64,000 nucleotides of DNA from an uncultured Alphaproteobacteria bacterium (GTDB lineage: Bacteria > Pseudomonadota > Alphaproteobacteria > Acetobacterales > Acetobacteraceae), in the NCBI GenBank assembly GCA_963777325.1, contig CAVZQE010000007.1:4536-68535 (forward strand), read 5' to 3'. A program made the position numbers and the translations under genes. Below the pieces are notes generated by a model, which ran no database searches, was not told where the DNA came from, and worked only from the letters and a program-made list of their open reading frames with translations. Positions 34,959-61,941 of the stretch are shown in pieces (position 1 is the first letter of the stretch; every line of letters begins with the position of its first letter).

Positions 34959-36206
34959 ATGGACCCGGTCGTGCTGGAATGGGGCGGGTTCCTGATCCGA
35001 TGGACGCACGTCGTCGCCGCCATCGCCTGGATCGGGGCGTCGTTCTACTTCATGCATCTCGACGCAAGCATCCGGCCCGCTCCGGCGCTGCCGAAGGGGG
35101 CGGGCGGCGAGGCCTGGGAGGTCCATGGCGGCGGCTTCTACCAGGTGCGGAAATATCTGGTCGCGCCCAAATCGATGCCCGAACACCTGATCTGGCATAA
35201 ATGGCAGTCCTACTCGACCTGGCTGTCCGGCTTCGCGCTGCTTTGCTGGGTCTATTACGCCCAAGCCGACCTCTATTTGATAGATCCGGCGGTGCGCCAG
35301 ATCAGCCCGCTCGCGGGCGCCGCGATCGGCATCGGCGGCTTGATCGTGGGCTGGCTGATCTACGACGGGCTGAACCGATCGAGGCTGTCCGACGCCCCGA
35401 TCATGCTCTCGGGCGCGGTTTTCGTCATCCTCATGCTGTTCGCCTTCGGCTTCCAGCAGGTATTCTCCGGCCGCGCCGCGATGCTGCATACGGGAGCCGT
35501 CATCGCGACCTGGATGACGGCCAACGTGTTCTTCGTCATCATACCGAACCAGCGAAAGACCGTCGCGGCGCTGATCGCCCGGCAGCAGCCCGACCCGGCT
35601 TGGGGCAAACAGGCCAAGAATCGCTCCTCGCATAACAACTATCTCACCTTGCCGGTGCTGTTCTTCATGCTGTCCGGCCACTACCCGCTGGCTTGGTCCA
35701 CGCCCTACGCCTGGGCGATCGTCGGCCTGGTCGTGGTGACGGGCGGGGTGGTGCGCCACTTCTACAATGCGCGCCACGCCGGCCAGGGCGATCCCTGGTG
35801 GACCTGGGGCGTGGCCGCTGCCTGCATCGTGCTCGCCGCCTTCATCAGCGTCGTGTCCTCCCCGGCCCAGCGCGAGCGCTACGGCCTGGCCTCGGCCGAC
35901 GCGCCTGGCACGGCCCAGGCCGCCGCCGCGCCTGCAAACGGGGCGGCGGCGGGGCTGCCGCCGGACGACGTGGTGACCATCGTCACGGGCAAATGCAGCA
36001 TGTGTCACGCGCCCGAACCGCTGTGGCCCGGCCTTGCCAGTGCCCCAAAAGGCGTCCTCCTGGACACGCCCGAGCACATCGCGCGCTTCGCCCCGGCGAT
36101 CCGGATGCAGGCGGTCCTGACCCATGCCATGCCACCCAACAACATCACCGGCGTCGAGCCCGAGGAGCGGCAGCAACTGGCGATGTGGCTCGCGACGGCC
36201 CACTGA
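34959..36206 (+). CDS. puuD: Urate hydroxylase PuuD-like membrane protein with a C-terminal cytochrome c motif
   Basis: Starts MDPVVLEWGGFLIRWTHVVAAIAWIGASFYFMHLD. Contains SSHNNYLTLPVLFFMLSGHYP and CSMCH. Confidence 0.82.
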   Translation: MDPVVLEWGGFLIRWTHVVAAIAWIGASFYFMHLDASIRPAPALPKGAGGEAWEVHGGGFYQVRKYLVAPKSMPEHLIWHKWQSYSTWLSGFALLCWVYYAQADLYLIDPAVRQISPLAGAAIGIGGLIVGWLIYDGLNRSRLSDAPIMLSGAVFVILMLFAFGFQQVFSGRAAMLHTGAVIATWMTANVFFVIIPNQRKTVAALIARQQPDPAWGKQAKNRSSHNNYLTLPVLFFMLSGHYPLAWSTPYAWAIVGLVVVTGGVVRHFYNARHAGQGDPWWTWGVAAACIVLAAFISVVSSPAQRERYGLASADAPGTAQAAAAPANGAAAGLPPDDVVTIVTGKCSMCHAPEPLWPGLASAPKGVLLDTPEHIARFAPAIRMQAVLTHAMPPNNITGVEPEERQQLAMWLATAH

Positions 36207-36219
36207 AAGCAACCTTAGT

Positions 36220-36247
36220 GCGCCCGGCCGCGCCGCCAGCCGGGCGC
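36220..36247 (+). terminator. GC hairpin after puuD (no U-tract)
   Basis: Stem gcgcccggc/gccgggcgc with a 10-nt loop, 14 nt after the puuD stop. Confidence 0.3.
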
Positions 36248-36257
36248 GCGGGCTGCC

Positions 36258-36306
36258 GCAGTTGGATGATCCACCGCCGCCAACGGCGGCGGTCGCAGAA
36301 CGGAGA
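36258..36306 (+). repeat. Left direct repeat (attL-like)
   Basis: gcagttggatgatccaccgccgccaacggcggcggtcgcagaacggaga, with an internal ccgccgcc/ggcggcgg palindrome. Confidence 0.8.
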
Positions 36307-36395
36307 GTCGGACCAACCAGCCCAGACCCCGCGCGGCCGGGACAACGGCGGCTGCGGCTCATGACCACCGTCCCCAGCACGCCGGAGACCGGCCC

Positions 36396-37043
36396 GTGAC
36401 GCCGTACGTCCGGCCCGCCTGGATCGCCGACCTCGCCGCCGACCTCGCGCGCACCACGACCGACCTGCGCAGGACGCTGCGGCGGCAGCACCACGATCCG
36501 CAGCCGGAGGCGAGCACCAGGGCAGGCCGCACCGATCCGCGCGGCATCCGGATCTCGCTCGCCGAGGCGCGGACGCTGCTACGCGGCGCGCTGCCGGTGC
36601 CGCTGTACCGCCGGCCGCGCCGGGCCGCGCACGCGACGCTAACGGTCGCACTGGCGCGCTGCGCCGATGCGCTGCTCGACTGCAACGACGATCCGCGCAT
36701 GGCCGGACCGCACGCCATCACGGCCGTGCTCGACTGCGCGGATGCCCTACGCGCCTGGGCACAAGTCGCGCGCTGGCAGCAGGCGACGCAGGCCGCGCAT
36801 CTCGCGTGGAGCATTGGCGATAAGGTCGCTTCTGCGACAACCGCCGCGCCGAGTCCGGAACAGACCGCGCACGCCGCGCCGCCGGAAACCGACCGTCCGG
36901 AGCCGCCCGCCCGCACCGCGCGCGCGCCGCGCCGCCGCGCCGTGCAGCGCGCGCTATTGCTACCGATTGCAACGACCGCGAGCTCGCACCACCCCGCAGA
37001 GGAGCACACCCGTGACGCTGACGCTGACCGCGCCGCCGCCTGA
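36396..37043 (+). CDS. Hypothetical protein, element ORF1 (215 aa)
   Basis: GTG start overlaps an upstream in-phase TGA (GTGA), with GGAG 8 nt upstream. I recognise no family. Confidence 0.5.
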   Translation: MTPYVRPAWIADLAADLARTTTDLRRTLRRQHHDPQPEASTRAGRTDPRGIRISLAEARTLLRGALPVPLYRRPRRAAHATLTVALARCADALLDCNDDPRMAGPHAITAVLDCADALRAWAQVARWQQATQAAHLAWSIGDKVASATTAAPSPEQTAHAAPPETDRPEPPARTARAPRRRAVQRALLLPIATTASSHHPAEEHTRDADADRAAA

Positions 37044-37182
37044 CGCCGCCAACCCCGCACAGTGGCGCACGGCCCTGCGCCGGCTGGCCGAGGCGGCGAT
37101 CGACGCGCTGGACGCGCTCGGGCCGGACCCGGACGCCGAGCCGGAGCACGACCGCGAGCCGGAGCCGGAGGCGCTGCAATGA
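37012..37182 (+). CDS. Hypothetical small acidic protein, element ORF2 (56 aa)
   Basis: AGAGGAG lies 7 nt before the GTG. The stop overlaps the ORF3 ATG (ATGA). Confidence 0.45.
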   Translation: MTLTLTAPPPDAANPAQWRTALRRLAEAAIDALDALGPDPDAEPEHDREPEPEALQ

Positions 37183-37517
37183 CCCTGCGCACGCGCCTGG
37201 CCGCCGCGCTCCGGCCGCCGCCGGTCGCGCTGGAGACCGACGCGCACGGCCGTCCGCTCAGGGTGGTGCGCGGCGGCCGCGTGCTGGCGCAGCTCGGGGG
37301 ACCGCCGCCGCCGGCGGGCGAGCCGCCGAGCAGCGTGACCGACCTCTGCGTCACCGCGAGCCTGCGCCCGGCCGCGCGCGGTCCGACGTGGACGGTGCGG
37401 GCGACCGATACCGCGACCGGCCTCGTCGTAGAGCGCCAGGGCGTGCCGCCCGACAGCCGGATCGGCCGGGCGCTGACGGCGCTAGCCCGCGCCCTCGAGC
37501 GCGACGGCGGAGGGTAG
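37179..37517 (+). CDS. Hypothetical protein, element ORF3 (112 aa)
   Basis: ATGA coupling to ORF2. The ORF ends in a G-tract hairpin. Confidence 0.5.
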   Translation: MTLRTRLAAALRPPPVALETDAHGRPLRVVRGGRVLAQLGGPPPPAGEPPSSVTDLCVTASLRPAARGPTWTVRATDTATGLVVERQGVPPDSRIGRALTALARALERDGGG

Positions 37518-37963
37518 GGCAGGGGCGGGGCAGGGGCACACCCCGCCCGCCCGGATCACACACCCGCGACCCAGGGCGCAATTTCAGCGGCCAAAACAGG
37601 CCGCGATCAGGCAGGATCAGGCCGGGGCGAGGCCCGGCCCGGCGGCGACCCATGCGCCGTCGGCTCCCGGGACGGGTCGGGTCTCCCCCCGCACCGCCGG
37701 TGCGCGGCCCTGCGCCTCTCCACGCCGGGTCGCGCGCCGGCCCTCGCTGCGGCCTGACGGCCGCCGGCCGGCCCGCTCCACCAGCCGCCCGCCTCGCCCG
37801 CCAGCGTGGGCAGATGCGGTCGGCCGCGCGCGGGCAAGCGCCGCGCCAGCACGGCGCGCGGCGCGCGCCGCCCTGCGGGCCGTCCCTGCGCTACGCGTCG
37901 CAAGCGCCGCTGCGCTCCGGGCGGTGCCGTCACGCCGCTTGCACGCCCGGCCGGAGTCATGCC

Positions 37964-38011
37964 TGGGGGGCACCGCCCCCCAGACCCCCGCCCCCCAGAC
38001 CCCCGCCCCCC
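37964..38011. repeat. C-tract tandem repeat (G-quadruplex-prone on the minus strand) with a G6/C6 hairpin
   Basis: ggggggcaccg cccccc aga ccccc g cccccc aga ccccc g ccccccc. Confidence 0.85.
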
Positions 38012-38558
38012 CGCGCCGCCGGGTGCGCGCGCAGCGGCATCGCAAGCTCGCCACGCCCGTCCCGCCGCACCAGGCCCGCGCCAAGCGGCGCGGGCCGGGC
38101 GGGCGGTCCGCGCATGGCCCGCAAGCGCACGTCGGGCGCGCCGCCGCGCCGGGTTTTCCGGCGCGTCGCCCGGCGGCTGGGGGGCTGCCGTGCCCGGCCC
38201 CGTCCGCGCGGCTCAGTGCGCTCGTTCCTCGCGCCGCCGCGCCGGGGCCGGGCCGCGCCCCCCAAGGCAAGGCAAGCGGGGGCGCTCACGGCAGGGTCTC
38301 AGGCCGTCCCGCAGGCCCCCCGTTGCAGCGCCCCTCCAACGGGGGGGCTCGCCGGGCCCTGGCGCACGACCGCACGCATCGCGCGCCCGGCCGGCCGCAT
38401 CCAGGCCGCACGGCTGCGCCGCGCGCCGCCTGCGGCGGCCGCTGCGCGGGCCTGGACCCGTCCGGCCGGGCACGCAGGCCGGCGATGGTCCGCCGCGGCG
38501 GGGTGTGGCGCACCCCGCCGCGTCCGACCGATCCACGCGCCGCACAGGAGAGCACCGT

Positions 38559-38774
38559 ATGACCGCCGCAACGACCGACCGCGCCGCCGCCGCCGCCGCC
38601 GGCTACTACGTCCGCGAGGGCAGCTACAGCCACACCCACGATGACCGCCTGGGCCGCTGGTACGTCGGGCACCGCAACGACGCCGGATTCCGGCCTTGGG
38701 GGGCGGGCTACGGCTCCGAGGCCGAGGCCTGGCAAGCCGCCATCGAGCGCGCCCGCGACACCGGCCGCGTCTGA
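38559..38774 (+). CDS. Hypothetical small protein, element ORF4 (71 aa)
   Basis: GGAGAG lies 8 nt before the ATG. Composition looks like a real protein (Y, W, H, D, E present): ..GYYVREGSYSHTHDDRLGRWYVGHRNDAGFRPWGAGYGSEAEAWQAAIERA. Confidence 0.55.
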   Translation: MTAATTDRAAAAAAGYYVREGSYSHTHDDRLGRWYVGHRNDAGFRPWGAGYGSEAEAWQAAIERARDTGRV

Positions 38775-38852
38775 CCGAGGCGACGAGGGCGGGGTGCGGC
38801 ACCCGCCGCGCCCCATCCTTGCGGACCACACCACGACGAGGGGAGAGACCCG

Positions 38853-39020
38853 ATGCGCCAGCCGATCACCCGCACCCGCCCGGCCGACGGCCCGAGCTTG
38901 GTCATGTCGCTGCTCGACCTAGCCGAGCACGGAGATCTCGATCTGACCGACCTCGACACCGCCGACGTCCGGGCGCTCGCCGCCGTGCTCGCCCGCATCC
39001 TCGCCGGCCGCGAGCCGTAG
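38853..39020 (+). CDS. Hypothetical small acidic protein, element ORF5 (55 aa)
   Basis: GGGGAGAG precedes the ATG. It falls below the 60-aa cutoff of the supplied ORF track and I translated it by hand. Confidence 0.4.
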   Translation: MRQPITRTRPADGPSLVMSLLDLAEHGDLDLTDLDTADVRALAAVLARILAGREP

Positions 39021-39078
39021 CGTTGGCAACCGCAACGACGGCGAGGGCGCAACGATCTCGCCGCGAGCCGCCCAGGCT

Positions 39079-39459
39079 CTACCCGGCGGCGCGGCCGTAG
39101 CGGGCGAGCATGGCCGCGAGCTCGGCGTCGGAGAGCTGGCGCACATCCAGCTCGCCCCGCTCGTAGGCGGCGATCCGGTCGGCCGAGCAGCCGCCGCGCG
39201 CGCGGCCGGGACTGTCCGGCGGCCGCAGCGCGGCGAGGGCGCGAGCGGCGGCGACCCGAGTCGCGGCCGATGCCTTGGGGTCCGACAGCGCCGAGATCAG
39301 CGCCGAGCGGGCGGCGTGCTGGCCGATCTCGGCCTCGATCGCGCCCGCGAGCGACGGCAGCGGCGGCCGGGGCGGACGGCCGCGCGGGTTACCGCTGCGC
39401 CCAGGCGGATAGCGGCCCGAGGGCAGGCGAGGCGGATCGGCGTCGTCGTCAACAGCCAC
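39079..39459 (-). CDS. DUF5681-like protein (GNPxGRP motif), element ORF6
   Basis: GTG at 39459 lies 8 nt after GGAGAG. Contains PPGRSGNPRGRPPR followed by a helical tail. The family assignment is from memory of the motif. Confidence 0.5.
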   Translation of the reverse strand: MAVDDDADPPRLPSGRYPPGRSGNPRGRPPRPPLPSLAGAIEAEIGQHAARSALISALSDPKASAATRVAAARALAALRPPDSPGRARGGCSADRIAAYERGELDVRQLSDAELAAMLARYGRAAG

Positions 39460-39817
39460 TTGGCGGCTCTCCGGGCAGGCGACGGGCGGAACGGGGTGGC
39501 GGCGGACGCCGGGCGCAGAGTGCCACGTGCGATCCCGGTGGCCCGCCGCCTGCCCGCAACAGGCAGCACCTGCGGCGGGTATATGCACGTGATGATTACC
39601 AACCTGCGATTGTATGATGACGCCATGCCCTGTGGACAACCGACCGGCTCCGGGCCTGCCCCCCGACGCTCCCGTGATCGACGGGCGTCCGCGTCCGGGG
39701 ACAGCCCCTCAACGCTGGATGATGCTCTATGAGAGCGGACCAATTTGTCGGCTTGCCTCAATGCGTTGCGGACCACCAAAATCCCCAAGTGGATACAACC
39801 GCATCATCTGAGGCATA

Positions 39818-40285
39818 ATGCCCCGCACGCGCACCGTCCGGACGGCCATCCTCACCGACGACCTGGGCCGGCGCTATCATATGCGCGCAGAGGTGCCGCC
39901 CGGATGCGGCTACCCGGAGGGCTGGATGATCACCTGGGACTCGACGCGGCAGATACGGCGCAAGATCCGGAGCGTGGCGACGCTGCACGTCCTGGACGCC
40001 CTGCCGGACTATCTGAGTTGGACCGAGTGGCGACGCCTGCCGCAGCAGCAGCTAGCCGCCAGCCTTGACCTCGGCCAAGCGTCGATCAGCCGCGCGCTGA
40101 CCGAGCTACTCGGCCTGCAGCTCATCGAGCGGCGCGGCAACGGCCCCGTAACCGAGTGGCGACTGTCGCTCTCGGCGGGCTGGCGCGGCGGCGCCCCGGC
40201 GTATCACGCCGCGCGCCGGACGCGCGGCATGGAGCAGCTGGATGATCCGCCGCCGCCGCCAGCGGCGGCGGTCGCAGAAGGGAGA
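39818..40285 (+). CDS. Winged-helix DNA-binding protein, element ORF7; its native 3' end appears to lie at 36307..36399
   Basis: GAGG SD then ATG. The HTH segment reads QQQLAASLDLGQASISRALTELLGLQLIERRG. As integrated, the ORF runs on without a stop to 40795. Confidence 0.6.
40234..40285 (+). repeat. Right direct repeat (attR-like)
   Basis: gcagctggatgatccgccgccgccgccagcggcggcggtcgcagaagggaga. Confidence 0.8.
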
Positions 40286-40348
40286 TTATGTAAAGCTGGT
40301 GTCGCGGGCGTGCTTGCGGTCGCGCTCTGTCCGGGACACCGTCTGGCA

Positions 40349-40795
40349 ATGCAGAGGCCGCGATTGCTTCTCGCTGCGTTCATGTTGCTGGTGAGTTCAG
40401 CGGCCGTCGCGCAACCGTGGCCGGTGTTTCGCATACACGACCATCTCGATCCGCATGAGGTCGAGGAAACCACCTCCGTCTATATCGACGGCGAACTCGT
40501 GCAAATCTTCCGGCTGAGCGCGCAGCATTCTGACGGCGTGGTGGAACTGCCCGCGCGTCCTGGCGAGGTCGAGTATCTGCTGTGCGGGAGCATAACCGTC
40601 AGGCAGCCGGACGGGAGCGCGGAAATCCACCGGGTCGATGGGTCCGGCGTTCTGACCGACGTCGCAGGCCGGGATTTCGACGCCGTCGCCGCGTTCGACT
40701 TCACGCTATTTTATTTCGTGGACGTGACCCCGAACCGCCCCCCAGCGCCGGTGCGGGTCCGGAGGGTCCGCTCCTGCGCCGAGGCGCTCTCCTGA
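40349..40795 (+). CDS. Secreted hypothetical protein (148 aa)
   Basis: Signal peptide MQRPRLLLAAFMLLVSSAAVAQ. GC is lower than in the adjacent element. Confidence 0.6.
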   Translation: MQRPRLLLAAFMLLVSSAAVAQPWPVFRIHDHLDPHEVEETTSVYIDGELVQIFRLSAQHSDGVVELPARPGEVEYLLCGSITVRQPDGSAEIHRVDGSGVLTDVAGRDFDAVAAFDFTLFYFVDVTPNRPPAPVRVRRVRSCAEALS

Positions 40796-44435: not shown

Positions 44436-45466
44436 GGATGGACGCGCTTGTAGGTATCGAGATCGAACAGCGCGTCCACGTCGCCCACCTGAGGCAGGAC
44501 GCCGAGCTTGACCTGGAACGCCGCAAGCTTCTTCACCGGCTCGACGATCACCGCCGGGTCCGAGACGAACTTCGCGCCCGGCGAGGCCAGGGCCTTGTCC
44601 ATCGTCTGCCGCGTCAGGATGCCGCCGCCGAGCGCCTGCAGGACGAAGGGCGCGGCCTGATCCGGGTGATCGCGCAGCAGATCGGTTGCCCGAATGAACA
44701 GCCGGACCAGCGTGTCCTTCCAGGCTTTCGTCGCGGGACGGTCGGGCTGATAGAGCGCGAGCACGGAGCCGGGCTGGCCCGGCATCATCTGGTGCCCGGT
44801 CGCGAGCAGCCGCGAGCCCGGCACGCGCATGCGCACGACGGTCAGCGCCGGCTCCCGGAGCACGGCCGCATCGACCGATCCGGCGAGAAAGGCCTGCTGC
44901 GTCGCATCGATGTCGATGCCGATGATCTCGACGGTCGCCGGATCGACCTTGTTCTCGTCCAGCCAATACCGCATCAGCGTGTCCGGCACCGAGCCGGACG
45001 GTTGCGCCGCGAATTTCGGCTTGCGGCCGGCGGCCTTCGTGAACGCGGCGATGCGGGCGGGGAGATCGTCTGGAGCACCCTCCTGCAAGCCCTCGACCAG
45101 CTGGCCGCGCCCGACCACCTCCAGCTCCTCGATGGCGGCGGCGGCGACCACTTTGGTGTCCACGCCGCGCGCGCGGGCGACCAGCAGCGGCAGCACGCCC
45201 GCGACATAGCCCTCGATCTTGCCCGAGGCGAGCCCCTGGATGGCCTGCGGCCCGTTGCCGAAGCGGACGAGTTGCAGGTCGAGGCCGGCCTGCTTCGCCC
45301 ACCCCTCCCCGTCCAGCACGAACAAGGGGCCGGACCCGAGCACCGGAATATAGCCGATACGGATCGTCTGGGCGGCGCGGGCGCGGGCGGGCAGCAGACC
45401 ACAGGCGGTAGCGGCGGCGCTCGCGGTCAGCAGCGTACGGCGCGGGAGGAAAGCGGGCATCGACAC
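44432..45466 (-). CDS. ABC substrate-binding protein (NMT1/THI5-like, SsuA/TauA family)
   Basis: Tat-like signal ([25 protein letters not shown]), then [16 protein letters not shown]. Confidence 0.85.
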
Positions 45467-45564
45467 CTCAGTGGGACAGGGGACGCACGTTTAGCGCCCG
45501 GGGCCGGATGGTCAATCCGAGCGAAGCCGGGCTACCGTGCCGACAGGCGGAGGGGAAAGACACC

Positions 45565-46311
45565 ATGACCGATCGGATCGCACTCGTCACCGGGGCTGGC
45601 AGCGGCGTCGGCCGCGCGGCATCGCAGGCGCTCGCGGATGTCGGGTTCACCGTGGTGCTGGCGGGACGCCGCCGCGAGACGCTCGAGGAGACCGCTTCCC
45701 TTCTGCCGGACGGCCGTGGCGTCGCCGTTCCGGCGGACGTAACCGATCCAGAGTCCGTCGCCGGGCTGTTCGAGACGATCGGCGCGAAGTTCGGCCGCCT
45801 CGATCTCCTGTTCAACAACGCCGGCGGCAACGTGCCGAGCACGAATTTCGGCGATCTCACCTGGGAGCAGTGGCGGTCCGTGCTGTCCACCAACCTCGAC
45901 GGCATGTTCCTGATCGCGAGCGGCGCCTACAAGATGATGCGCGACCAGTCGCCGCAGGGCGGGCGCATCATCAATAACGGTTCGATCTCCGCCCACGCGC
46001 CGCGTCCCGGCTCCGCGCCGTACACCGCGAGCAAGCACGCGGTCACGGGACTGACCAAGTCGATCGCGCTCGACGGCCGGCCGTACGATATCGCGTGCGG
46101 CCAGATCGACATCGGCAACGCCGCAACCTCGATGGCCGCCCGGATGGCGACGGGCGTGCCGCAGGCGAACGGCACGATAGCGATCGAGCCGTTGATGCCG
46201 GTTGAGGAGATCGGCCGCACCCTCGCCTACATGGCGACGATGCCTCCGGATGCGAACGTGCTGTTCATCACCGTCATGGCGACCAAGGCGCCGCTGGTGG
46301 GACGGGGATAG
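45565..46311 (+). CDS. SDR-family oxidoreductase
   Basis: Contains [14 protein letters not shown] and YTASKHAV. Confidence 0.9.
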
Positions 46312-46362
46312 GGAGTTCTCTTTTCGCGTATGCTCGGCAAGACCTCGACCACGCTCCGAGGA

Positions 46363-47406
46363 TCAGTCCGAACGGGAGACCGTTCGGATCGTGTTGAGGA
46401 GCCCGATCATGCTCAAAATCCATGATGCAAGCGCCACCCAGTATAGGCTGCGCGCAACCGGATGCAGGAAGCCGGTCCCGGAAGCCGAGGCGTAGGTCTG
46501 AGTTGCCACGCTGTACATTCCGAGCGGGAACACGAGAGACCAGACGCCGGGCCGGTATCTGAGGTTGTGCCACTCGATCACGTATTTGCGGAAGAATATG
46601 ATCGCCAACAGAGGAATCCAAAAGGTCGCCACGGCCCAGAAAAGAACGGTGAACGGATCGAGAAAGCTTCGCAGCTGATGAGAAAGGGGCGAACGAAGTA
46701 GCTCCGCGCCGGCCAGGGTGGTGATCGCGGCAGCGCCCATGTTGATCCACCATGACTCCGTCATCTCGGCTGACGACATCGGGATGAACGTCCATCGATA
46801 GAAGACCAGTCCCAGCATCATAAGATACAGAACGCCACCGAGGAGGCAGGCGGCGAGCGCGAAAAATCCGATCAGCGGAGAGTGCGACACGTCCCGCGAA
46901 ACGATGCTGCCCAGGATCGCCACGGATTCGGTGCCGACGATGAGCAGGAACCATGAGCCGTTCAATCCGTGCTCGAGATCCGGCTTGGCCGAACCGAGTG
47001 TCGTGGTCGCGAGGAACCCGTACATCAAGCCGATCCAGAGCATCAGCGCCAGCCCCAAAATCCACGGCAGGAGCGAGATTGCGATGCCGAACGTGGCGCA
47101 CTGGCTTCCGATCAGACCGGTCGCGGCGACCATGGTGAGAAATGTCGGGCCGAGTTCATGGGTGCGAAAATCGGCAAGGACAAAACCGGGAAAGCGGAAG
47201 ACCCGAGCCGCCGTGATACACCAGAGTGTCGGGTAGGCGATGACATTGACCACGAACAGAATCCAGTCGATGCCGTCGTGATGCAGCACATGCGAATCGA
47301 TGGCGATAATGCCGGTCGCCATCGAAAGGCTGAAATAGCCAGGGAAGAAATCCGCCAGCCAAGCGGGCCTACCCTCCTTGACCGGATCGGTGTCGCGTGA
47401 CGCCAT
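46363..47406 (-). CDS. TehA/SLAC1-family (tellurite-resistance/dicarboxylate transporter) membrane protein
   Basis: 347 aa with about 10 TM segments. Contains FPGYFSLSMATGIIAI..WWINMGAAAIT..LVFPLGMY. GC is clearly lower than in the neighbours. Confidence 0.8.
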   Translation of the reverse strand: MASRDTDPVKEGRPAWLADFFPGYFSLSMATGIIAIDSHVLHHDGIDWILFVVNVIAYPTLWCITAARVFRFPGFVLADFRTHELGPTFLTMVAATGLIGSQCATFGIAISLLPWILGLALMLWIGLMYGFLATTTLGSAKPDLEHGLNGSWFLLIVGTESVAILGSIVSRDVSHSPLIGFFALAACLLGGVLYLMMLGLVFYRWTFIPMSSAEMTESWWINMGAAAITTLAGAELLRSPLSHQLRSFLDPFTVLFWAVATFWIPLLAIIFFRKYVIEWHNLRYRPGVWSLVFPLGMYSVATQTYASASGTGFLHPVARSLYWVALASWILSMIGLLNTIRTVSRSD

Positions 47407-47656
47407 CCGGATTGGAGGTAGGGGGCTGCAGACCGGAGCACAAGGCGATTCCGGCGCGGTTGATCACGTGACCGGGGCAGAATCCCGGGCAGAGGGGGTT
47501 GCGATCCCGCCATGCGGGCTGTCCACGACCTGCCGTGAGCTGCCAGCCTCGCAGCCCCACCGGTAGCTTCTTCCCTTTCGGTGCCGCCGAAACCAGATCA
47601 CGGTCACGGTCACGGGCACGACAACCGGCACCCACCGCGAACAATGGAGAGCAACG

Positions 47657-48619
47657 ATGAGCTGGTATCCCTGCCCCGACCCCGTGCCCGGCGACCGGGC
47701 CAGTACGGACGCCATCGAAACGCTGATCGTGCCGCGCGCCGTCGATCTCGGCGAGATGACGGTGCGGCGGGCGCTGCCGAGCGAGAAACGCCAGATGGTC
47801 GGGCCGTTCATCTTCTTCGACCAGATGGGGCCGGCCGCGTTCCTGACGGATCAGGGCATCGACGTCCGCCCGCACCCGCACATCAATCTCGCCACCGTCA
47901 CTTATCTGTTCGAGGGGCAGATCCTGCACCGCGACAGTCTCGGCACCGAGCAGGCGATCGAGCCGGGCGCCGTGAACTGGATGCAGGCCGGGCGCGGCAT
48001 CGTCCACTCCGAGCGCACGAGCCAGGAGCGCAGGCGCACTGGCCAGCGCCTGTTCGGCATCCAGACCTGGATGGCCTTGCCGAAAGACGACGAGGAGGGC
48101 GACCCCGCCTTCGTGCATCACGCAGCCGCCGCGCTGCCCATGGTGGAGGCGGACGGCATGCGGGCGCGGCTGATCGCGGGCGAGGCGTTCGGCGCGCGCT
48201 CCCCGCTCGCGACCCAATCCGCGACGCTGTACGCCGACCTGCATCTCGCCGCGGGCGCGCGGCTTTCGATCGACCCGACATACGAGGAGCGGGCGCTCTA
48301 CACGCTCTCCGGCACGATCGCGGTCGCGGGCGACGCATTCGAACCGGGCCAGCTGTTGGTCCTGCGTCCGGGCGACGCCATCACCGTCTCGGCGGCCTCC
48401 GACGCGCGCTGCATGCTGTTCGGCGGCGCGCCGATGGAGGGACCGCGTTACATCTGGTGGAACTTCGTGTCCTCGCGGCCTGAGCGGATCGAGCAGGCCA
48501 AGCAGGAATGGGCGCAAGGACGCTTCGACACGGTGCCCGGCGACGCGGAGGAGTTCATCCCTCTGCCGCAGAGAAAGGAAGCGCCCCGGCGCGCCACGGG
48601 CGGCGTCTTCTACCCTTAA
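47657..48619 (+). CDS. Pirin family protein
   Basis: Contains VGPFIFFDQMGP..HPHINLATVTYLFEG..HRDSLG.. Confidence 0.88.
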   Translation: MSWYPCPDPVPGDRASTDAIETLIVPRAVDLGEMTVRRALPSEKRQMVGPFIFFDQMGPAAFLTDQGIDVRPHPHINLATVTYLFEGQILHRDSLGTEQAIEPGAVNWMQAGRGIVHSERTSQERRRTGQRLFGIQTWMALPKDDEEGDPAFVHHAAAALPMVEADGMRARLIAGEAFGARSPLATQSATLYADLHLAAGARLSIDPTYEERALYTLSGTIAVAGDAFEPGQLLVLRPGDAITVSAASDARCMLFGGAPMEGPRYIWWNFVSSRPERIEQAKQEWAQGRFDTVPGDAEEFIPLPQRKEAPRRATGGVFYP

Positions 48620-48649
48620 GGTTCTGTCTGCAACCATTCGAGGCGTCGC

Positions 48650-49588
48650 ATGGCTCGCACCATCGCCGGCATCCACCACGTCACGGCGATCTCCGGCCCC
48701 GCGCAAGCGAACGTCGATTTCTATGTCGGCCGGCTCGGGCAGAAGCTGGTCAAGAAGACCGTCAATTTCGACGCGCCCGACACCTATCATCTCTATTACG
48801 GCGACCGCACGGGCACGCCCGGCACCATCCTGACCTTCTTTCCGTTCGCGGACGCGGGATCGGGGCGCGCCGGGCCGGGAATGGCGAGCGCGCTCGCCTA
48901 CGCCGTCCCGGCCGGCGGGCTGGATGTCTGGATGGAGCGCCTGGCGGAGCAAGCGATCGAGTTCGAGGGACCATCGACGCGCCTCTGCGACCGCATGATC
49001 GCGCTCGCCGACCCCGACCGGTTGCGCGTGGAACTGATTGAGGAAGCCGGCGCGACGACGGGGGGCGATGCGGGCAAGCCGGCTGGTGGCGGCTTTCACT
49101 CCGTCACGCTCTGGCTGGAACGGCCGGACGCGACGGCGCGGGTGTTGACGGACTTGTTCGGCTATGAGCCGGCCGGTCACGAAAACAATGGAGGCACGGA
49201 GCGCCTTCGCTTCCGGACACCGTTCGGCGAGCGCGGCTCCGTCGTGGATCTCGTTCGCTCCGACGCGCCGTCGATCGGCCGGCAAGGCGCGGGCACGATC
49301 CACCACGTCGCGTTCCGGGCCGAGGACGACGCGGCGCAAGGCGAATGGCGTGAGCGCGTAGCGGCGTTCGGCCTCGACGTGACGCCCGTGATCGATCGGC
49401 GGTATTTCCATTCCATCTACTTCCGCGAGCCGGGCGGCGTATTGTTCGAGATCGCGACCGACGCGCCGGGCTTCGCGGTGGACGAGCCGCCCGGCGAACT
49501 CGGAACGCATCTGATGCTGCCGCCGCGCTACGAGACGCAACGCCGCGCGATCGAACGCGTGTTGCCTCCGATCAGCGTGCCCGCTTGA
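48650..49588 (+). CDS. VOC-family ring-cleaving dioxygenase (glyoxalase-fold, two domains)
   Basis: Contains GIHHVTAISG..NVDFY..LGQKLVKKTVNFDAPDTYHLYYGD and GTIHHVAFR..YFHSIYFREPGGVLFEIATD. Confidence 0.88.
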   Translation: MARTIAGIHHVTAISGPAQANVDFYVGRLGQKLVKKTVNFDAPDTYHLYYGDRTGTPGTILTFFPFADAGSGRAGPGMASALAYAVPAGGLDVWMERLAEQAIEFEGPSTRLCDRMIALADPDRLRVELIEEAGATTGGDAGKPAGGGFHSVTLWLERPDATARVLTDLFGYEPAGHENNGGTERLRFRTPFGERGSVVDLVRSDAPSIGRQGAGTIHHVAFRAEDDAAQGEWRERVAAFGLDVTPVIDRRYFHSIYFREPGGVLFEIATDAPGFAVDEPPGELGTHLMLPPRYETQRRAIERVLPPISVPA

Positions 49589-51281
49589 ACGACGCCGGAT
49601 CGGCGGCCGGTCCGGAGGATCGCGGCTGCCGGATTTCGGGGAAGCGCTGCCGTGTCGTCGCCGATTGCCCGGTCACCAGTTCGGCGCAGCGGCTTCCGAG
49701 CATCAGCGCCGGTGCCGCCGTGTTGCCCGCGTTGATGTTCGGCATCGCGGAGAGATCGCACACGCGCAGATTCGCAACGCCACGGACCCGAAGCCGCGAA
49801 TTGAGCACGGCCATCCGGTCCCCGGTTGACCCCATGCGGCAGGTTCCGCTCGGGTGGTAGTTCGTTTTCACGTGACGACGGCAGTGCTTCATGACCGCAT
49901 CGTCGCCGAGATCGCCCGGATCGGGGACGGCGATGCGCTTGATGCGGTCCGAAAGCGGCTTGGCCTGCAGAGCGCGGAGGAAGAACCGCTGGCCGGCGAT
50001 CATCGCCTCGGCATCGGCGGGATGTTTCAGCAGATGGGGCGAGACCAGCGGCATGTCGCCGGGATCGGCGGATCGCAAGCGGACGAAACCGCGCGAGCGG
50101 GGTTTGACCACGACCGTGGTGATGGTCACGCCATAGGTATTCTCGACCAGGGACAGCGCGTCGCGATCGAGATAGACGATCGGCACGCAGAAGGCTTGGA
50201 TCGTCGGTTCCGACCCCGGATCGACCGGGTTGACGAACGCCCCGGCTTCCACCCCGGCCGACAGGATCGGCCCGCTGCCGAATAGCCGGAACTGCATGCC
50301 GTTGAGCAGCATCCGCCAGCCGACACCCTGCTTGTAGTAGCCGTGCCGTCCGCTCGCGGTCGCGATGATCGGCACCTCTGGATGATCGATGAGATTTTCG
50401 CCGACGCCAGGGAGATCGACGAGGCAGCGGATGCCGTGCGTTCCGAGGTGATCGGCGGGGCCGATTCCGGACAACATCAGCAGCTGCGGCGTGACGAGCG
50501 CGCCGGCGGAGAGGATCACCTCCCGATCGGCGAACGCCCGGTGCTCGGCGCCGGCCGCGTCGGAGAAGGTGACGCCGGTCGCCCGGCCTCCCTCGATCTC
50601 GATCCGCCGCACGGGGGCGTTGAGGCGGATCGTCAGCCGGGGATCGCCGGCCAGCGGCGCGAGGAACGCGTAGGCCGCGCTGCTGCGCTTCCCGCGCCGA
50701 TTGGTGAACTGGTAGAAGCCGACCCCGCGCTGCGTCGGTCCGTTGAAGTCGTGGTTGAACGGCTCGCCGAGACCCTGGACGCTCTGCACGAACCACCGGG
50801 AAAACTCGTTGATGTGCCCTGGATCGGAGACGAGCAGCGGCCCATCCACGCCGTGCCGCTCGTCGAACAGCCGCTCATTGCCCTCCATGACGCGGAAATG
50901 CGGCAGCACATCCGTCCAGCGCCAACCCGGGTAGTCGTTCTCTCCGCGCAGCATTTCGTGCCACTCGTCGTAGTCGGAGGGCCTGCCTCGCATGTAGACC
51001 TGGGCATTGACGGACGAACCGCCGCCGAGAACGTGGCCTTGCGGGATGTCGTGAACGCGGCCGCCCAGATGCTCCTGCGGTACCGTCTTGTGGTATCGCA
51101 TGTATTTGCTGCCGTTGATCATCTTGAAGATGCCCGGCGGCATGTCGAGCAAGGGATGCCGGTGAGAGTGGCCGGCCTCCAGCAGCAGCACGCGGGCCCC
51201 CGCCTCCTGCACCAGCTGCGAGGCGACGACACAGCCCGCGGCGCCCCCGCCCACGACGATGTAGTCGAAGCTTTCGCTCAT
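49572..51281 (-). CDS. GMC-family oxidoreductase (choline dehydrogenase-like)
   Basis: The ATG at 51281 gives MSESFDYIVVGGGAAGCVVASQL. Also contains GGSSVNAQVY and HPSGTCRMG. Confidence 0.9.
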   Translation of the reverse strand: MSESFDYIVVGGGAAGCVVASQLVQEAGARVLLLEAGHSHRHPLLDMPPGIFKMINGSKYMRYHKTVPQEHLGGRVHDIPQGHVLGGGSSVNAQVYMRGRPSDYDEWHEMLRGENDYPGWRWTDVLPHFRVMEGNERLFDERHGVDGPLLVSDPGHINEFSRWFVQSVQGLGEPFNHDFNGPTQRGVGFYQFTNRRGKRSSAAYAFLAPLAGDPRLTIRLNAPVRRIEIEGGRATGVTFSDAAGAEHRAFADREVILSAGALVTPQLLMLSGIGPADHLGTHGIRCLVDLPGVGENLIDHPEVPIIATASGRHGYYKQGVGWRMLLNGMQFRLFGSGPILSAGVEAGAFVNPVDPGSEPTIQAFCVPIVYLDRDALSLVENTYGVTITTVVVKPRSRGFVRLRSADPGDMPLVSPHLLKHPADAEAMIAGQRFFLRALQAKPLSDRIKRIAVPDPGDLGDDAVMKHCRRHVKTNYHPSGTCRMGSTGDRMAVLNSRLRVRGVANLRVCDLSAMPNINAGNTAAPALMLGSRCAELVTGQSATTRQRFPEIRQPRSSGPAADPASFKRAR

Positions 51282-51318
51282 CGCCTCCCCTCTCGACGGC
51301 TCGGGTAGCGGTGCTTGC

Positions 51319-52407
51319 TCAGGCGCGAATGCTCTCGAGCGCCTTCCAGTCGAATTCGACCCCATGGCCCGGCCGTTCCGGCGCGATCGCGAACCCGTCC
51401 TCGATCCTGAGCGGCGCGGCGATGTAGCGGTCGAGCCCGAAACCGTGCGCCTCGAGATAGGAGCGGTTGGGCGCGGCCGCGAGCAGATGCACCGTGACGT
51501 CGTGGGCGCCGTGCGACGTCACCGGCAGGTTGTACGCCTCGGCCAGGTGCGCGATCTTCATGAAGGAGGTCACGCCGCCGCAGTTCGTGACATCCGGCTC
51601 CGGATAGGTGACGCCGCCCGCCGCGATCAGCTGCTTGAATTCCCACAAGGTCCGAAGATTCTCGCCGGAGGCGACCGGCAGTCCGCCGTCGCGCACGACC
51701 CGGACCTGCCCGGCCACGTCGTCGGGGATGAGCGGCTCTTCCAGCCAGCCGGGGGCATAGGGCTGAAAGGCACGCGCCGCGCGGATCGCCTCGTCCGCCG
51801 ACCATTTCATGTTCGCGTCCACCATCAGCGGAAAGCCCTCGCCCAGATGCTCGCGCATGGCGCGGACGCGCTCGACGTCCTCGGCCAGATTCTTGCGCCC
51901 GACCTTCATCTTGATGGCGCGGAAGCCCTTCTTGAGATTGTCGTCGGTCTGCCGCAGCAGCTTGTCGAGCGGGAAGTCGAGATCGATCCCGCCCGCGTAG
52001 CAGGGCACACGCGGGTCATAGCCGCCGAGCAATCTCCACAGCGGCTGGCCCAGGCGCTTCGCCTTCAGATCCCAGAGCGCCATGTCGAGGGCAGAGAGGG
52101 CGAGGACCGTCGGGCCGCCGCGGCCGCCGTAATGCTGTCCCCACCAGACTTTCTGCCACAGCAACTCGATCCGGTCGGCGTCCTGTCCGGCTACCTGGTC
52201 GGGAACGTCGCCGCGCAAGATCGCGTCGATCGCCGCGCCGTTGCGGCCGACGGTGAAGGTATAGCCGACGCCCTCGGCGCCTTCCGCATCCTGCAGCCGG
52301 ACGGTGTTGAGCTCGAAGTCGAGCATGTCGCCATGCATGCTGTCGCTGAGCGCGATCTCCAGGGGCACCCGGTAGTACCCCGCTGTCGTCCTGGCGATGG
52401 CCGGCAT
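51319..52407 (-). CDS. Enolase-superfamily enzyme (mandelate racemase/muconate lactonizing family)
   Basis: Contains KMKVG, MVDANMKW, WLEEP and ASGENL, the typical metal-ligand pattern. Confidence 0.88.
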   Translation of the reverse strand: MPAIARTTAGYYRVPLEIALSDSMHGDMLDFELNTVRLQDAEGAEGVGYTFTVGRNGAAIDAILRGDVPDQVAGQDADRIELLWQKVWWGQHYGGRGGPTVLALSALDMALWDLKAKRLGQPLWRLLGGYDPRVPCYAGGIDLDFPLDKLLRQTDDNLKKGFRAIKMKVGRKNLAEDVERVRAMREHLGEGFPLMVDANMKWSADEAIRAARAFQPYAPGWLEEPLIPDDVAGQVRVVRDGGLPVASGENLRTLWEFKQLIAAGGVTYPEPDVTNCGGVTSFMKIAHLAEAYNLPVTSHGAHDVTVHLLAAAPNRSYLEAHGFGLDRYIAAPLRIEDGFAIAPERPGHGVEFDWKALESIRA

Positions 52408-52481
52408 CGTGTTCCTCCCCGCTCGTTCGGTCCGTCAGGTTTCGGCTCGTCGCGAACGACGACGCATTCCATCGGCCTTCG

Positions 52482-53273
52482 CTAAATCCGCCACCATCCC
52501 CCCCGAACCTCCAGCGCGTCCAGCATTGCGTCCGCCGCGAGGCGTGGCAGCCGCCGCAGCAGCGAGGGGCGGCGCGGGCGGAAGACGCGCGGCCGCGCGC
52601 GTTCCCCGCCGATCTCGCGGACCAGGGCCGCGACGTCGCCCAGCCGGTCGATCAAGCCGAGCGTCAGCGCCTCGTCGCCGAGAAAGAAGCTGCCATCGAA
52701 CAATCTGGCCTCGTCGCCCTGCAGTCGCGCGCCGCGCCGGCTCCGGACCCAAGCCTTGAAGCGCTCGTGCAGGTCGGCCATCAGGCGCTGCACGAAGATG
52801 ACGTCCTCCGGCCGCTCCGGGCTGAACGGATCGAGCCGCGCCTTGTTCTCCCCCGCCGTGTACAGCCGCCGCTCGACGCCGAGCCGCGCCAGCGCGCCCG
52901 TGAAGCCGAAGCCGCCGCCCACGACCCCGATTGAGCCGACGATGCTCATCGCATTGGCGACGATCTCGTCGCCGGCGCAGGCGATCCAGTAGCCGCCGGA
53001 CGCGCCCACCTCCTGCACCACGGCATGGACGGTCACGCCCGCGCGGTCGGCCTCGCGGCGGATCGCGCCCGCGATCAGGTCCGACTGCACGGGCGAGCCG
53101 CCCGGGCTGTCGATGTCGAGCAGCACATGGCCGCCCCGCTTGCCGGCGGCGCGGATCGCGCGCTCGATCAGCGGCCCTACCGTCCGGAGCGACAGGCCCG
53201 AGCCGCCGCTTCGGATGACGCCGTGCAATTCGAGCACGGCGACACGGGGCCGCCGCCAGAACAGAAGCTTCAT
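52482..53273 (-). CDS. S49-family peptidase (SppA-like)
   Basis: Contains LDIDSPGGSPVQS and GASGGYWIACAGDEI. ATGA overlap with the upstream oxidase gene. Confidence 0.88.
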   Translation of the reverse strand: MKLLFWRRPRVAVLELHGVIRSGGSGLSLRTVGPLIERAIRAAGKRGGHVLLDIDSPGGSPVQSDLIAGAIRREADRAGVTVHAVVQEVGASGGYWIACAGDEIVANAMSIVGSIGVVGGGFGFTGALARLGVERRLYTAGENKARLDPFSPERPEDVIFVQRLMADLHERFKAWVRSRRGARLQGDEARLFDGSFFLGDEALTLGLIDRLGDVAALVREIGGERARPRVFRPRRPSLLRRLPRLAADAMLDALEVRGGWWRI

Positions 53274-54559
53274 GCGTGAGACACCAGAGCGGCCGCCCAA
53301 TCCGCCGCCGCGCGGCCGGTCAGATAGGCCCCGCCCACCGTGCCGGCGAGCGTCGGATGCGTCGCCTCGCCCGCGAACAGCAGCCGCCCGCCGCCAACCG
53401 GCTCCGAGAGCCGCGCCCGCGCGTCGGCCTGCCCCGGCACGGCGTAGGCATAGGCGCCCCGGAACAGCCGGTCCTCGGCCCAGCTCGTGACGACGGGCTC
53501 CGAGCGGGCGAACAGACGGTCGGCCCGGACGCCGAACAGCGCATGCAGATGGTCGCGCACGAGGGCGGCGGCGGCGCGCGGGCCTTCGCCGGCGACTGCC
53601 ATCGCCGCGTCCGCGCCGATCCATGCGATGATGTGGTCGCGTCCGAACGGCCAGAAGTTGAGGAGAATCGCGGGTTCGCACCGGTCCTCGATCCGCCGGT
53701 CGATGGTGCAGAACTCCGGCAGATCGAGCCGGTCGTCGCTCCCGGCCCGCAGCGCGACCTTGGTGGCGAGGCCCATCGGCAGGGTGTCGATACTGTCGCG
53801 CGTCGCGGGCGGCAGGTCCGGCACGAAGCGGATCGACCCCGCTTGCAGCACGCCCGTCGAGACCGTGACGATGCAGGCACGCGCCGTGATCGTCCCGGCG
53901 GTGGTCTCGACCGCGACGCCCGCCCCCGGCGCATCCCACCGGATGACCCTGGCCTCGGTCCCGAAGCGCACGTCGATGCCGCGGCCAAGCGTGGCGGCGA
54001 CAAGGGCGCCCAGACCCTCGCTTGACATCAGGTTGCGGCCCTGTAGCCCGTTGTTGCGCCAGTCGCGCAGGCTCAGCCGCGTCGCGGGAGCGGCGGCGAT
54101 GATCGGCCCTTCCCAGGCCTCGACGGTGAGCGCCCAGGGGTCCGCTTTAAGCCGGTCCGCGACGTCGGCGAGCGTCGCGTCCGATCCGGGCTCCGCGAGC
54201 AGCCCGTCCGCCGCAGCCTCGAAACGCGACCACGCCCGGTCGTAGCCGCGCAGCTCGGCTGCCGTCGCCCAGGCAGAGCCGATCCGGGTGCGGCCGTTGC
54301 GGACACGATCGGCGTCGACGAGCGGAACGCCCGCGCGCTCCGCGAGCGGAACCAGGGGGTTGCGGTCGGCGGCGTGCAGCCACACCGCGCCGTGGTCGAA
54401 CGGCGCTCCGCCGAGAGCGTCGGGCCGCGTGGTCCAGGCGCGGCCGCCGATACGGTCGCCGGCTTCGGCGAGGACGATGCGTCTGCCAAGAGTTCGCAAC
54501 CGCGACGCGGCCGAGAGGCCCGCCACACCCGCGCCGACGATGACGACCTCTGTCTCCAT
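53270..54559 (-). CDS. Flavin-containing amine oxidase family protein
   Basis: Contains VVIVGAGVAGLSAA..LEAGDRIGGR and C-terminal FAGEATH. Confidence 0.88.
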   Translation of the reverse strand: METEVVIVGAGVAGLSAASRLRTLGRRIVLAEAGDRIGGRAWTTRPDALGGAPFDHGAVWLHAADRNPLVPLAERAGVPLVDADRVRNGRTRIGSAWATAAELRGYDRAWSRFEAAADGLLAEPGSDATLADVADRLKADPWALTVEAWEGPIIAAAPATRLSLRDWRNNGLQGRNLMSSEGLGALVAATLGRGIDVRFGTEARVIRWDAPGAGVAVETTAGTITARACIVTVSTGVLQAGSIRFVPDLPPATRDSIDTLPMGLATKVALRAGSDDRLDLPEFCTIDRRIEDRCEPAILLNFWPFGRDHIIAWIGADAAMAVAGEGPRAAAALVRDHLHALFGVRADRLFARSEPVVTSWAEDRLFRGAYAYAVPGQADARARLSEPVGGGRLLFAGEATHPTLAGTVGGAYLTGRAAADWAAALVSHA

Positions 54560-54586
54560 GAGTGCGTAGCCGTCTGCGTTCCCCGG

Positions 54587-54808
54587 TCAGCGCTGGGCGC
54601 GCTTGGCGGCGTCCGGGTCGGAGCCCGCGTCCTCGTCCAGCTCCTGCACGACTTCCTCGACCGCCGAGCGATCCAGTTGCACCGCCTTCTCGGCCAGTTC
54701 ATCGCCCTTCTTCTTGTCGCCCTTCGCATATTCCTCGAGAGCTTGCTCGGCGAGCAGGCGGGCCTGCTCGTGCCGGTCCGTCGGCGCATCGCTGTCGGTG
54801 TCCGCCAT
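54587..54808 (-). CDS. Small acidic hypothetical protein (73 aa)
   Basis: Lies 27 nt upstream of the oxidase gene on the same strand. Helical, Glu/Asp/Lys-rich. Confidence 0.5.
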   Translation of the reverse strand: MADTDSDAPTDRHEQARLLAEQALEEYAKGDKKKGDELAEKAVQLDRSAVEEVVQELDEDAGSDPDAAKRAQR

Positions 54809-54992
54809 CTCCGTCTATCCCCCTTGAACGCAACGCGATCATGGTCAACGCGAACGCCGCCCCTCGTGCGAACGGGTGCTGTTCGTTCCCCCATCCGGGT
54901 GTACATTGACCGGGTCGCCGCCAAATCGGGCGCGACCCGCGTAGGGCTGCATGCGGGCACGGGTTTAGTCAACCGCGGAATCGGACGGAGAC

Positions 54993-56525: not shown

Positions 56526-56529
56526 GCCG

Positions 56530-57987: not shown

Positions 57988-58094
57988 TCACGCAATAAGA
58001 GTGATGGTGAAATGCGAAACCAAGGGCGCTCGCTCAAGTTATCGTTTTCGGACGTGACTTGCACCCGAGCATTGCCCGAATTGAAAGGCCATCA

Positions 58095-59150: not shown

Positions 59151-59214
59151 GCTTGGATGACGGCCCGGCGCGTGAGCAACTCGCCGCGCTGTATCGGGCG
59201 CTCGGACGGAGAAG

Positions 59215-60032: not shown

Positions 60033-60217
60033 CTGAACACGCCGCATCGCGTCGGGGGATCGCGCATCTGCGTTTTCGCAGCTACGATGTTGGGGCATCT
60101 GGGATGATTTTAGAACTCGGCTAGAAGAGCGATGCAATCTGAGCGTCGGAAAAGGCGTCCATGCCCCCAGGAGTCGGCCTGTTTCAAACCTAGTCAGTCA
60201 GTAATGCGCCGGCGTTC

Positions 60218-61356: not shown

Positions 61357-61389
61357 CCCTGAGCCTCCGTCATCGCCGACCCGGCTTGC

Positions 61390-61800: not shown

Positions 61801-61941
61801 CCCGCCTCTCCTTCGGCTCGCGATGACGGAGCAAGCCTGAGCGAGATGCGGCAGATTGGCAACAACCGAAGCGTCTCGTCATTGTCTTAGCGCCCCTTCC
61901 TGATCGTTCACCAAGACCGGGGAGGAAGTTGATAGGCTTGA

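Follow-up and report, generated by a model that had tools for sequence, protein, structure and literature searches.

The 64,000-nt stretch of contig CAVZQE010000007.1 from an uncultured member of the Acetobacteraceae (Alphaproteobacteria), referred to here as the window, carries a 3,976-bp insert which is probably an integrative mobile element that exploits Xer (IMEX), inserted at the chromosomal dif site in dependence on the host recombinases XerC and XerD. Judged from its sequence features, the element most likely represents a previously undescribed IMEX family in alphaproteobacteria; the IMEX class itself is known and no new recombination mechanism is proposed. IMEXs are the textbook mobile elements without an integrase, and their known hosts are for the most part Vibrio, Xanthomonas and Neisseria. 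The absence of an integrase from the insert is explained by the use, most likely, of host XerC and XerD. An earlier note on this DNA had suggested a host-encoded or a novel recombinase; the dif-like repeats described below point to the former, in the form of host XerCD, and the idea of a novel mechanism is not retained.

The GC content of the insert is 75–84%, compared to 64–70% in the flanking chromosome. It is bounded by two imperfect direct repeats with an identity of about 90%, DR-L at 36258–36306 (49 nt) and DR-R at 40234–40285 (52 nt), between which there are four substitutions and a single indel of 3 nt (GCC). The claim of the earlier note that repeats of about 50 bp are read here in the same codon phase was confirmed by a sequence check, the peptide QLDDPPPP..AAVAE being encoded by both copies in one shared frame. 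In the frame of the winged helix-turn-helix (wHTH) gene described below, two of these substitutions are synonymous and the indel equals a Pro codon, as would be expected if two coding copies had diverged. The possibility, also raised in the earlier note, that the repeat is a common motif was not supported within the window, since the 18-nt sub-motif GGATGATCCNCCGCCGCC was found at two places only in the window (DR-L and DR-R; chance expectation 0.16). An extension of the repeat to the left (36207–36257) was not significant, as 6% of the null windows score equally well. The repeats and the two dif-like sites at the ends of the insert are composed as follows:

36258–36289, plus strand: left copy of an extra 32-nt repeat on the XerC side, consisting of GCAGTTGGATGATCC and the palindrome ACCGCCGCC-AAC-GGCGGCGGT; wHTH-like, located in the host flank
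36290–36317, plus strand: attL, a hybrid dif-like site with XerC arm CGGTCGCAGAA (36290–36300), central region CGGAGA (36301–36306) and right arm GTCGGACCAAC (36307–36317)
40234–40268, plus strand: right copy of the extra repeat, which is the element's own wHTH coding sequence immediately 5′ of its XerC arm
40269–40296, plus strand: attR, the predicted present chromosomal dif, with XerC arm CGGTCGCAGAA (40269–40279), central region GGGAGA (40280–40285) and XerD arm TTATGTAAAGC (40286–40296)

The last 17 nt at the right end of the repeats correspond to the XerC arm and the central region of dif. The repeats stop precisely where the central region meets the XerD arm; from there on, attR continues with host sequence and attL with element sequence. 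attL and attR lie in direct orientation around the insert. The host-derived XerD arm of attR matches the arm predicted for Caulobacter CB15 at 10 of 11 positions and others at 7–8, whereas the element-derived right arm of attL is degenerate, with 3–4 of 11 matches to reference XerD arms.

An alignment of ten sites (attL, attR and eight related loci; alignment A4) revealed the invariant core G[TC]CGCA[GT]AA followed by [GT][GA][GAT]ATA, with unconserved flanks. This core matches the predicted Rhizobiales dif sites of Methylobacterium (TTCGCATAA-GATATA-TTATGGAACAT) and Bradyrhizobium (GATTCGCATAA-GGTATA-TTATGGAATAT) (Kono et al., 2011, supplement, PMC3025954). When the 22-nt Rhizobiales dif consensus was searched with up to three mismatches, attR was the sole match in the window, and no match was found in 100 shuffles. 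The right arms vary across the family; their fifth innermost base is a G in nine of the ten sites, as in dif. Since the core is read in different frames among the members (VAEGI in some, SQKEY or SQKGY in others), it is a cis-acting DNA site and does not reflect a coding constraint. The functional att core is predicted to comprise about 17–28 nt and not 50.

The position of attR was compared with the polarity of the surrounding chromosome, for which the FtsK-orienting polar sequences (KOPS) of the alphaproteobacterium Azospirillum were used (GGGNAGGG as starting motif, GGGCAGGG as the KOPS motif identified). Nine consecutive GGGNAGGG motifs are on the plus strand from 15,965 to 37,528 and five consecutive ones on the minus strand from 45,303 to 62,918. 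The strand switch thus falls between 37.5 and 45.3 kb, an interval which includes attR. In the host flanks, the plus/minus counts of GGGNAGGG were 6/2 on the left and 0/5 on the right (Fisher p = 0.021), and those of GGNAGGG were 15/6 and 6/13 (p = 0.025). The GC skew changes from +0.008 on the left to −0.008 on the right, with a peak of the cumulative skew at 34–36 kb. The site predicted to be dif is therefore in the setting expected of dif, the replication terminus. Directly 3′ of the ORF3 stop codon, at 37512–37535, the plus strand carries a cluster of three KOPS-like motifs, overlapping or adjacent to one another (GGGTAGGG, GGGCAGGG and GGGCAGGG) and oriented to attR.

The left host flank contains a gene for a ClC-type channel followed by a PuuD-like gene ending at 36206; the right flank starts with a gene for a small secreted protein (ATG at 40349), followed by uppP. 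The genes gltB and thrS farther out in the window indicate the main chromosome. No tRNA genes were found in the window, and Rfam returned nothing for it at gathering thresholds. An independent sequencing run yielded Logan contig L001 (ERR11594400; window 35807–40448), in which the insertion is present at an identical position. It differs from the window at four positions (36974, an indel at 37952, 37960 and 39262), all within the element, and at none in 614 nt of host flank.

The second line of evidence is the wHTH gene which is interrupted by the integration. The gene layout was based on the codon phase of the GC content at third positions (GC3) and on gene calls on L001. Three parts are relevant here:

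39818–40285, plus strand: first 156 codons of the wHTH gene, now fused in frame to host sequence and open to 40795
36307–36399, plus strand: 3′ tail of this gene, displaced, VGPTSPDPARPGQRRLRLMTTVPSTPETGP followed by a stop; its TGA overlaps the GTG of ORF1
36396–37043, plus strand: ORF1, 215 aa, the conserved family marker, with a helical N-domain followed by a disordered tail

As the earlier note had described, the frame remains open for 93 nt beyond DR-L and closes with GTGA at 36396–36399, with GGAG 8 nt upstream. Its further claim, a joined wHTH gene of about 186 codons coupled to the next ORF, also holds: joining 40285 to 36307 yields a 186-aa protein with a weak wHTH of the MarR/Crp/GntR type, coupled to ORF1. 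For the ORF1 family, 44 representative homologs were detected among 1.8 billion proteins. An uninterrupted wHTH gene was found in six metagenomic loci (L093, L094, L097, L098, L099 and L100), in which it abuts or overlaps ORF1 (overlap ATGA in L093 and L098). The C-terminal end of the uninterrupted homologs reads ..QR(T/N/P)L(R/N)LL(T/R)PI.. (QRxLRLLT; L093, L094, L097, L098 and L100), and the displaced tail in the window has the equivalent motif QRRLRLMTT.

A split form, consisting of the tail and ORF1 with no wHTH upstream, was identified in L092, L095 and L096. The neighbouring host genes are unrelated: L092 has RidA and FemAB-like ones, and in L096 a gene for a dynamin-like GTPase stops about 30 nt ahead of the XerC arm. 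The family thus comprises continuous and split forms with one constant break point. These loci confirm that the re-joined wHTH gene is real and support the proposal of the earlier note that a small circular element recombined inside its own gene. The conserved core of the family is a DUF5681 gene on the minus strand divergent from the wHTH gene on the plus strand, followed by ORF1; the divergent order was seen in L093, L094 and L097. In L097, an uninterrupted family member, a gene of the YspA/SLOG family (PF10686) was located upstream of the DUF5681 gene (272–637).

The sole database homolog of the wHTH protein is P0002 (128 aa, 49% identity), which has neither the tail nor a dif-like site. 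Its context is conserved in peat and soil metagenomes (L002–L011; e.g., L002 3919–4305), where its neighbours are the reverse transcriptase of a group II intron and a protein with fn3 repeats. The 3′ end of the gene carries the direct repeat AGAAATG(T/A)CAC with a spacing of 28 nt. P0002 as a second attR was rejected, as this 3′ end contains no dif-like site and the context is different.

Based on these features the following course of integration is proposed. The circular 3,976-bp form would carry a dif-like attP, termed site 1, in which the XerC arm G(T/C)CGCA(G/T)AA is followed by a central region of 6 bp, G(G/A)(G/A/T)ATA, and by an XerD arm that is degenerate. It would be placed in the linker of the wHTH protein, between the DNA-binding domain and the conserved C-terminal peptide. 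Host XerCD would pair attP with the chromosomal dif at the terminus, the strand exchange spanning the central region. The expected products are attL, with the host XerC arm, the central region and the element's right arm, and attR, with the element's XerC arm, the central region and the host XerD arm; attR would be a regenerated functional dif. The catalysis by XerCD, the order of the strand exchanges and an activation factor encoded by the element (candidates are ORF1 and the wHTH tail) are all inferred. To judge from the anatomy, integration would cut the wHTH gene in two and leave ORF1-ORF2-ORF3, which are translationally coupled, without the promoter of the wHTH gene, so that this free-form module should be off in the prophage state. 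For TLCΦ of Vibrio cholerae, the activation factor XafT was detected in cells with replicative TLCΦ and not in those with integrated TLCΦ.

Several points weigh against this interpretation. The direct repeat is 32 nt longer than a Xer exchange would duplicate. Compared to the nearest published dif predictions, the central region (GGGAGA) is different, as is the XerC arm (7/11). The identity of dif and the Xer dependence in this host are predictions, and neither xerC nor xerD was located in the window. All family contigs terminate in the GC-rich region, so that a complete relative was not recovered. An empty site was not recovered either: the PuuD proteins of the closest collection genomes are 73–80% identical without synteny, in none of the closest PuuD relatives does the lipoprotein gene or uppP adjoin puuD, and exact look-ups of the PuuD and lipoprotein sequences gave no match. 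This PuuD identity would place the host near Methylobacteriaceae. No circular junction was observed. Independent integrated copies with the junction of the window were, in contrast, found beside other host genes (L092 and L096).

The extra 32 nt left of the XerC arm would most simply be the relic of an earlier related IMEX, the body of which was deleted while dif was retained. At integration, dif is regenerated on the XerD side, and newer IMEXs insert on the dif side of older ones (PMC9226527). The same nucleotides are also an argument for a RecA-dependent crossover of the circular element with a 50-bp relic of an earlier copy beside dif, with no Xer involved in this event. The repeat of 49/52 nt is longer than the Xer core, and its left 32 nt are wHTH-like despite being located in the host flank. 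However, 50 bp at 90% identity are a poor RecA substrate, and the repeat stops exactly at the boundary of the central region and the XerD arm. Furthermore, the shared junction in L096, where the host gene ends about 30 nt before the XerC arm, leaves scant room for a relic, and a relic would itself require an earlier Xer event. Such a crossover is thus considered improbable compared to an IMEX integration by XerCD.

A second complete dif-like site was found inside ORF1 in inverted orientation:

36813–36840, minus strand: site 2, TTGTCGCAGAA-GCGACC-TTATCGCCAAT

Site 2 is kept in L092 (~2915–2944), L093, L094 (~1613–1642), L095 and L100 (~728–757). Its XerD arms are good and of the TTATGG type; that of L100, TTATGGAAACT, matches Methylobacterium at 9 of 11 positions. 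The site is encoded by rare AT-ending codons (ATA, GTT, CAA), with a GC3 of 25/44 within the site and 808/970 outside (p = 5.6e-5), and its frame in the window differs from that in the relatives. The distance between site 1 and site 2 is 540–650 nt. In the window, complementarity between their XerC arms extends over 17 nt with two mismatches; the right arms are complementary at only 2–6 of 11 positions.

The conserved inverted site, its maintenance by rare codons and the complementary XerC arms would fit an integration of the CTXΦ type, in which site 1 and site 2 of single-stranded DNA form a forked hairpin mimicking dif, one XerC exchange takes place and replication resolves the product. The sites in CTXΦ are, however, 90 nt apart (PMC5357621), far closer than those determined here, and the poorly complementary right arms lend a forked hairpin little support. 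In addition, neither a HUH/rolling-circle Rep nor filamentous-phage genes were found in the element ORFs (Pfam, PHROGs), and the phage collection gave no match. This route is accordingly held to be about as doubtful as the RecA-dependent crossover. As an alternative to the hairpin, site 2 may have a role in multimer resolution.

The remaining features of the element are listed below:

37012–37182, plus strand: ORF2, 56 aa, acidic, ..AIDALDALGPDPD..; GC3 frame signal, homolog in L092 with 60% identity
37179–37517, plus strand: ORF3, 112 aa; GC3 frame signal, homolog in L094
37518–38558, no strand assigned: non-coding stretch of 1,041 nt with 83% GC, highly structured, no codon-phase signal
38559–38774, plus strand: ORF4, 71 aa; GC3 frame signal, gene call on L001
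38853–39020, plus strand: ORF5, 55 aa, acidic; GC3 frame signal, gene call on L001
39079–39459, minus strand: ORF6, DUF5681 protein with GNPRGRP motif (Pfam PF18932, E 2.6e-6), divergent from the wHTH gene
39460–39817, no strand assigned: divergent control region of lower GC with two sigma-70-like promoter matches, one per direction (0.0 expected)

The GNPxGRP motif had already been assigned as DUF5681-like in the earlier note, in agreement with the Pfam result. Its statement that no recombinase, transposase, relaxase or Rep is present likewise stands, as none of these families was detected in any element ORF using Pfam and PHROGs, six-frame gap ORFs included. No integrase domain was found in the element ORFs or in the ten large window ORFs checked, and no match to DUF3653 (XafT) was obtained for any element ORF at E <= 1. 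The wHTH protein as a mimic of FtsK-gamma or XafT was rejected, as it gave only generic ArsR/MarR/GntR-type matches. Profile searches of the ORFs, also suggested in the earlier note, recovered the DUF5681 domain and the weak wHTH. For ORF1, no match was found in the PDB (Foldseek and profile search), Pfam or PHROGs, and none in 72,556 plasmids, the phage collection or IMG/VR; its AlphaFold2 (AF2) model contains four helices and is poor (pLDDT, the predicted local distance difference test, 60). A comparison of the element DNA, ORF1 and the DUF5681 protein with PLSDB and INPHARED revealed nothing relevant.

Among the public proteins, P0001 (325 aa; 39818–40795) is an ORF in which the wHTH N-terminal part is fused in frame with the host lipoprotein-like gene. 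This fusion was created by the integration and would be an artefact in the annotation; the host gene probably starts at the ATG at 40349.

In two relatives, the gene following ORF1 (L092 3248–3700 and L098 1800–1997) is weakly similar to phage virion morphogenesis/HK97 gp10-like genes (Phage_tail_S in L092, E 0.018), a sequence similarity which may indicate a connection to a helper phage or to a particle resembling a gene transfer agent (GTA). Particles of the type of the Rhodobacter capsulatus GTA (RcGTA) have a capacity of about 4 kb, which is close to the unit length of 3,976 bp. A satellite or cis-mobilizable element served in trans by the integrase of a helper phage or of an integrative and conjugative element, with the repeats as att sites of that integrase, would be in line with this gene, with the lack of an integrase in the element and with the detection of a DUF5681 protein in the virion proteome of a Salmonella phage, but it is highly improbable in view of the dif-like att core at the KOPS switch, the lack of tRNA genes and of an integrase among the ORFs checked in the window, and the failure of ORF1 to match any of the phage, plasmid and IMG/VR collections.

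The non-coding stretch at 37518–38558 folds more stably than its shuffled versions, with z values of −7.55 (plus strand) and −4.95 (minus strand) compared to +1.62 for the adjacent coding kilobase used as a control. No Rfam family was assigned to it; at gathering or E <= 1 thresholds, the searches for known RNAs yielded a single match, to R1162, which was at chance level. A decayed integrase in this region was rejected, as ten six-frame ORFs had no Pfam match at E <= 1 and no codon-phase signal was present. The equivalent stretch in which the family contigs all end has a GC content of 80–86%.

The C-terminus of ORF1 (36930–36960) contains a Q-x-x-L-L-L-P-I motif, which reads Q(L/R)SL(L/F)LP(I/L) in the homologs (e.g., QLSLLLPI; QLSLF in P0008). 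A similar peptide of the form Q-x-x-L-x-L-(L/M)-x-P-I is found in the wHTH tail (36352–36380), so that it is present in both proteins. The consensus of beta-clamp-binding peptides is QL[SD]LF, which the C-terminal motif of ORF1 resembles in its sequence. ORF1 is the main candidate for an activation factor, as its position relative to attP is invariably on the XerD side and site 2 lies within it. That ORF1, or the shared QxxLxL(L/M)xPI peptide, acts as a new non-DUF3653 factor of Xer activation or synapsis, with attP in the wHTH gene as a built-in switch and the GC-rich region as a non-coding RNA or an origin, is put forward tentatively and regarded as rather unlikely. On this view, the switch would act at integration, when the element loses the C-terminal peptide, disconnects ORF1-3 from their promoter and is locked in the chromosome.

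The attP proposed here has the defining feature of the TLCΦ and GGI (gonococcal genetic island) type, a conserved XerC arm and central region together with a degenerate XerD arm (PMC5357621, PMC9226527). The element shares with TLCΦ its small size (3,976 bp compared to ~5 kb), the lack of an integrase and the location at dif (PMC5357621, PMC9226527), as well as the proposed regeneration of dif on one side and the possibility of arrays or relics. It differs in the absence of XafT/DUF3653, of an XRE-type helix-turn-helix (XRE-HTH) protein and of a Cri-type HUH Rep, and no protein homology to TLCΦ was found. Moreover, the XerD-side flank of the TLCΦ attP is free of ORFs, whereas the attP described here lies inside a coding gene, and the host is an alphaproteobacterium. 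IMEXs of the XafT type have been reported in gamma- and betaproteobacteria (PMC6744903).

The GGI of Neisseria is similar in its attP type, and no Xer activation factor is known for it (PMC5357621, PMC6744903). It is, however, 57 kb in size and encodes a type IV secretion system, in contrast to the 4-kb element without transfer genes. CTXΦ and VGJΦ also use XerCD at dif, and the inverted attP1 and attP2 of CTXΦ (PMC5357621) resemble the inverted second site described here; the element differs from these phages by the lack of genes for filamentous-phage morphogenesis and replication and by sites about 550 nt apart with XerD arms that are not complementary. With the plasmid sites cer and psi, site 2 has in common a complete XerC/XerD-type structure with a central region unlike dif. 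In those plasmids accessory sequences flank the XerC arm, which is the side of the extra repeat in the window. In contrast to the plasmids, no replication module was recognised in the element, and ORF1 was unmatched among the plasmids searched.

If the interpretation as an IMEX is correct, it would account for an island without an integrase and for the artefactual 325-aa wHTH-lipoprotein ORF in the genome annotation. The element would also be a minimal system for a question which the GGI raises: by what means recombination proceeds without XafT at an attP whose XerD arm is degenerate. The family would offer a practical route to locating dif in such genomes. A 4-kb, non-filamentous family of Rhizobiales-like alphaproteobacteria without homology to the proteins of known IMEXs would extend the IMEXs to another class of bacteria.

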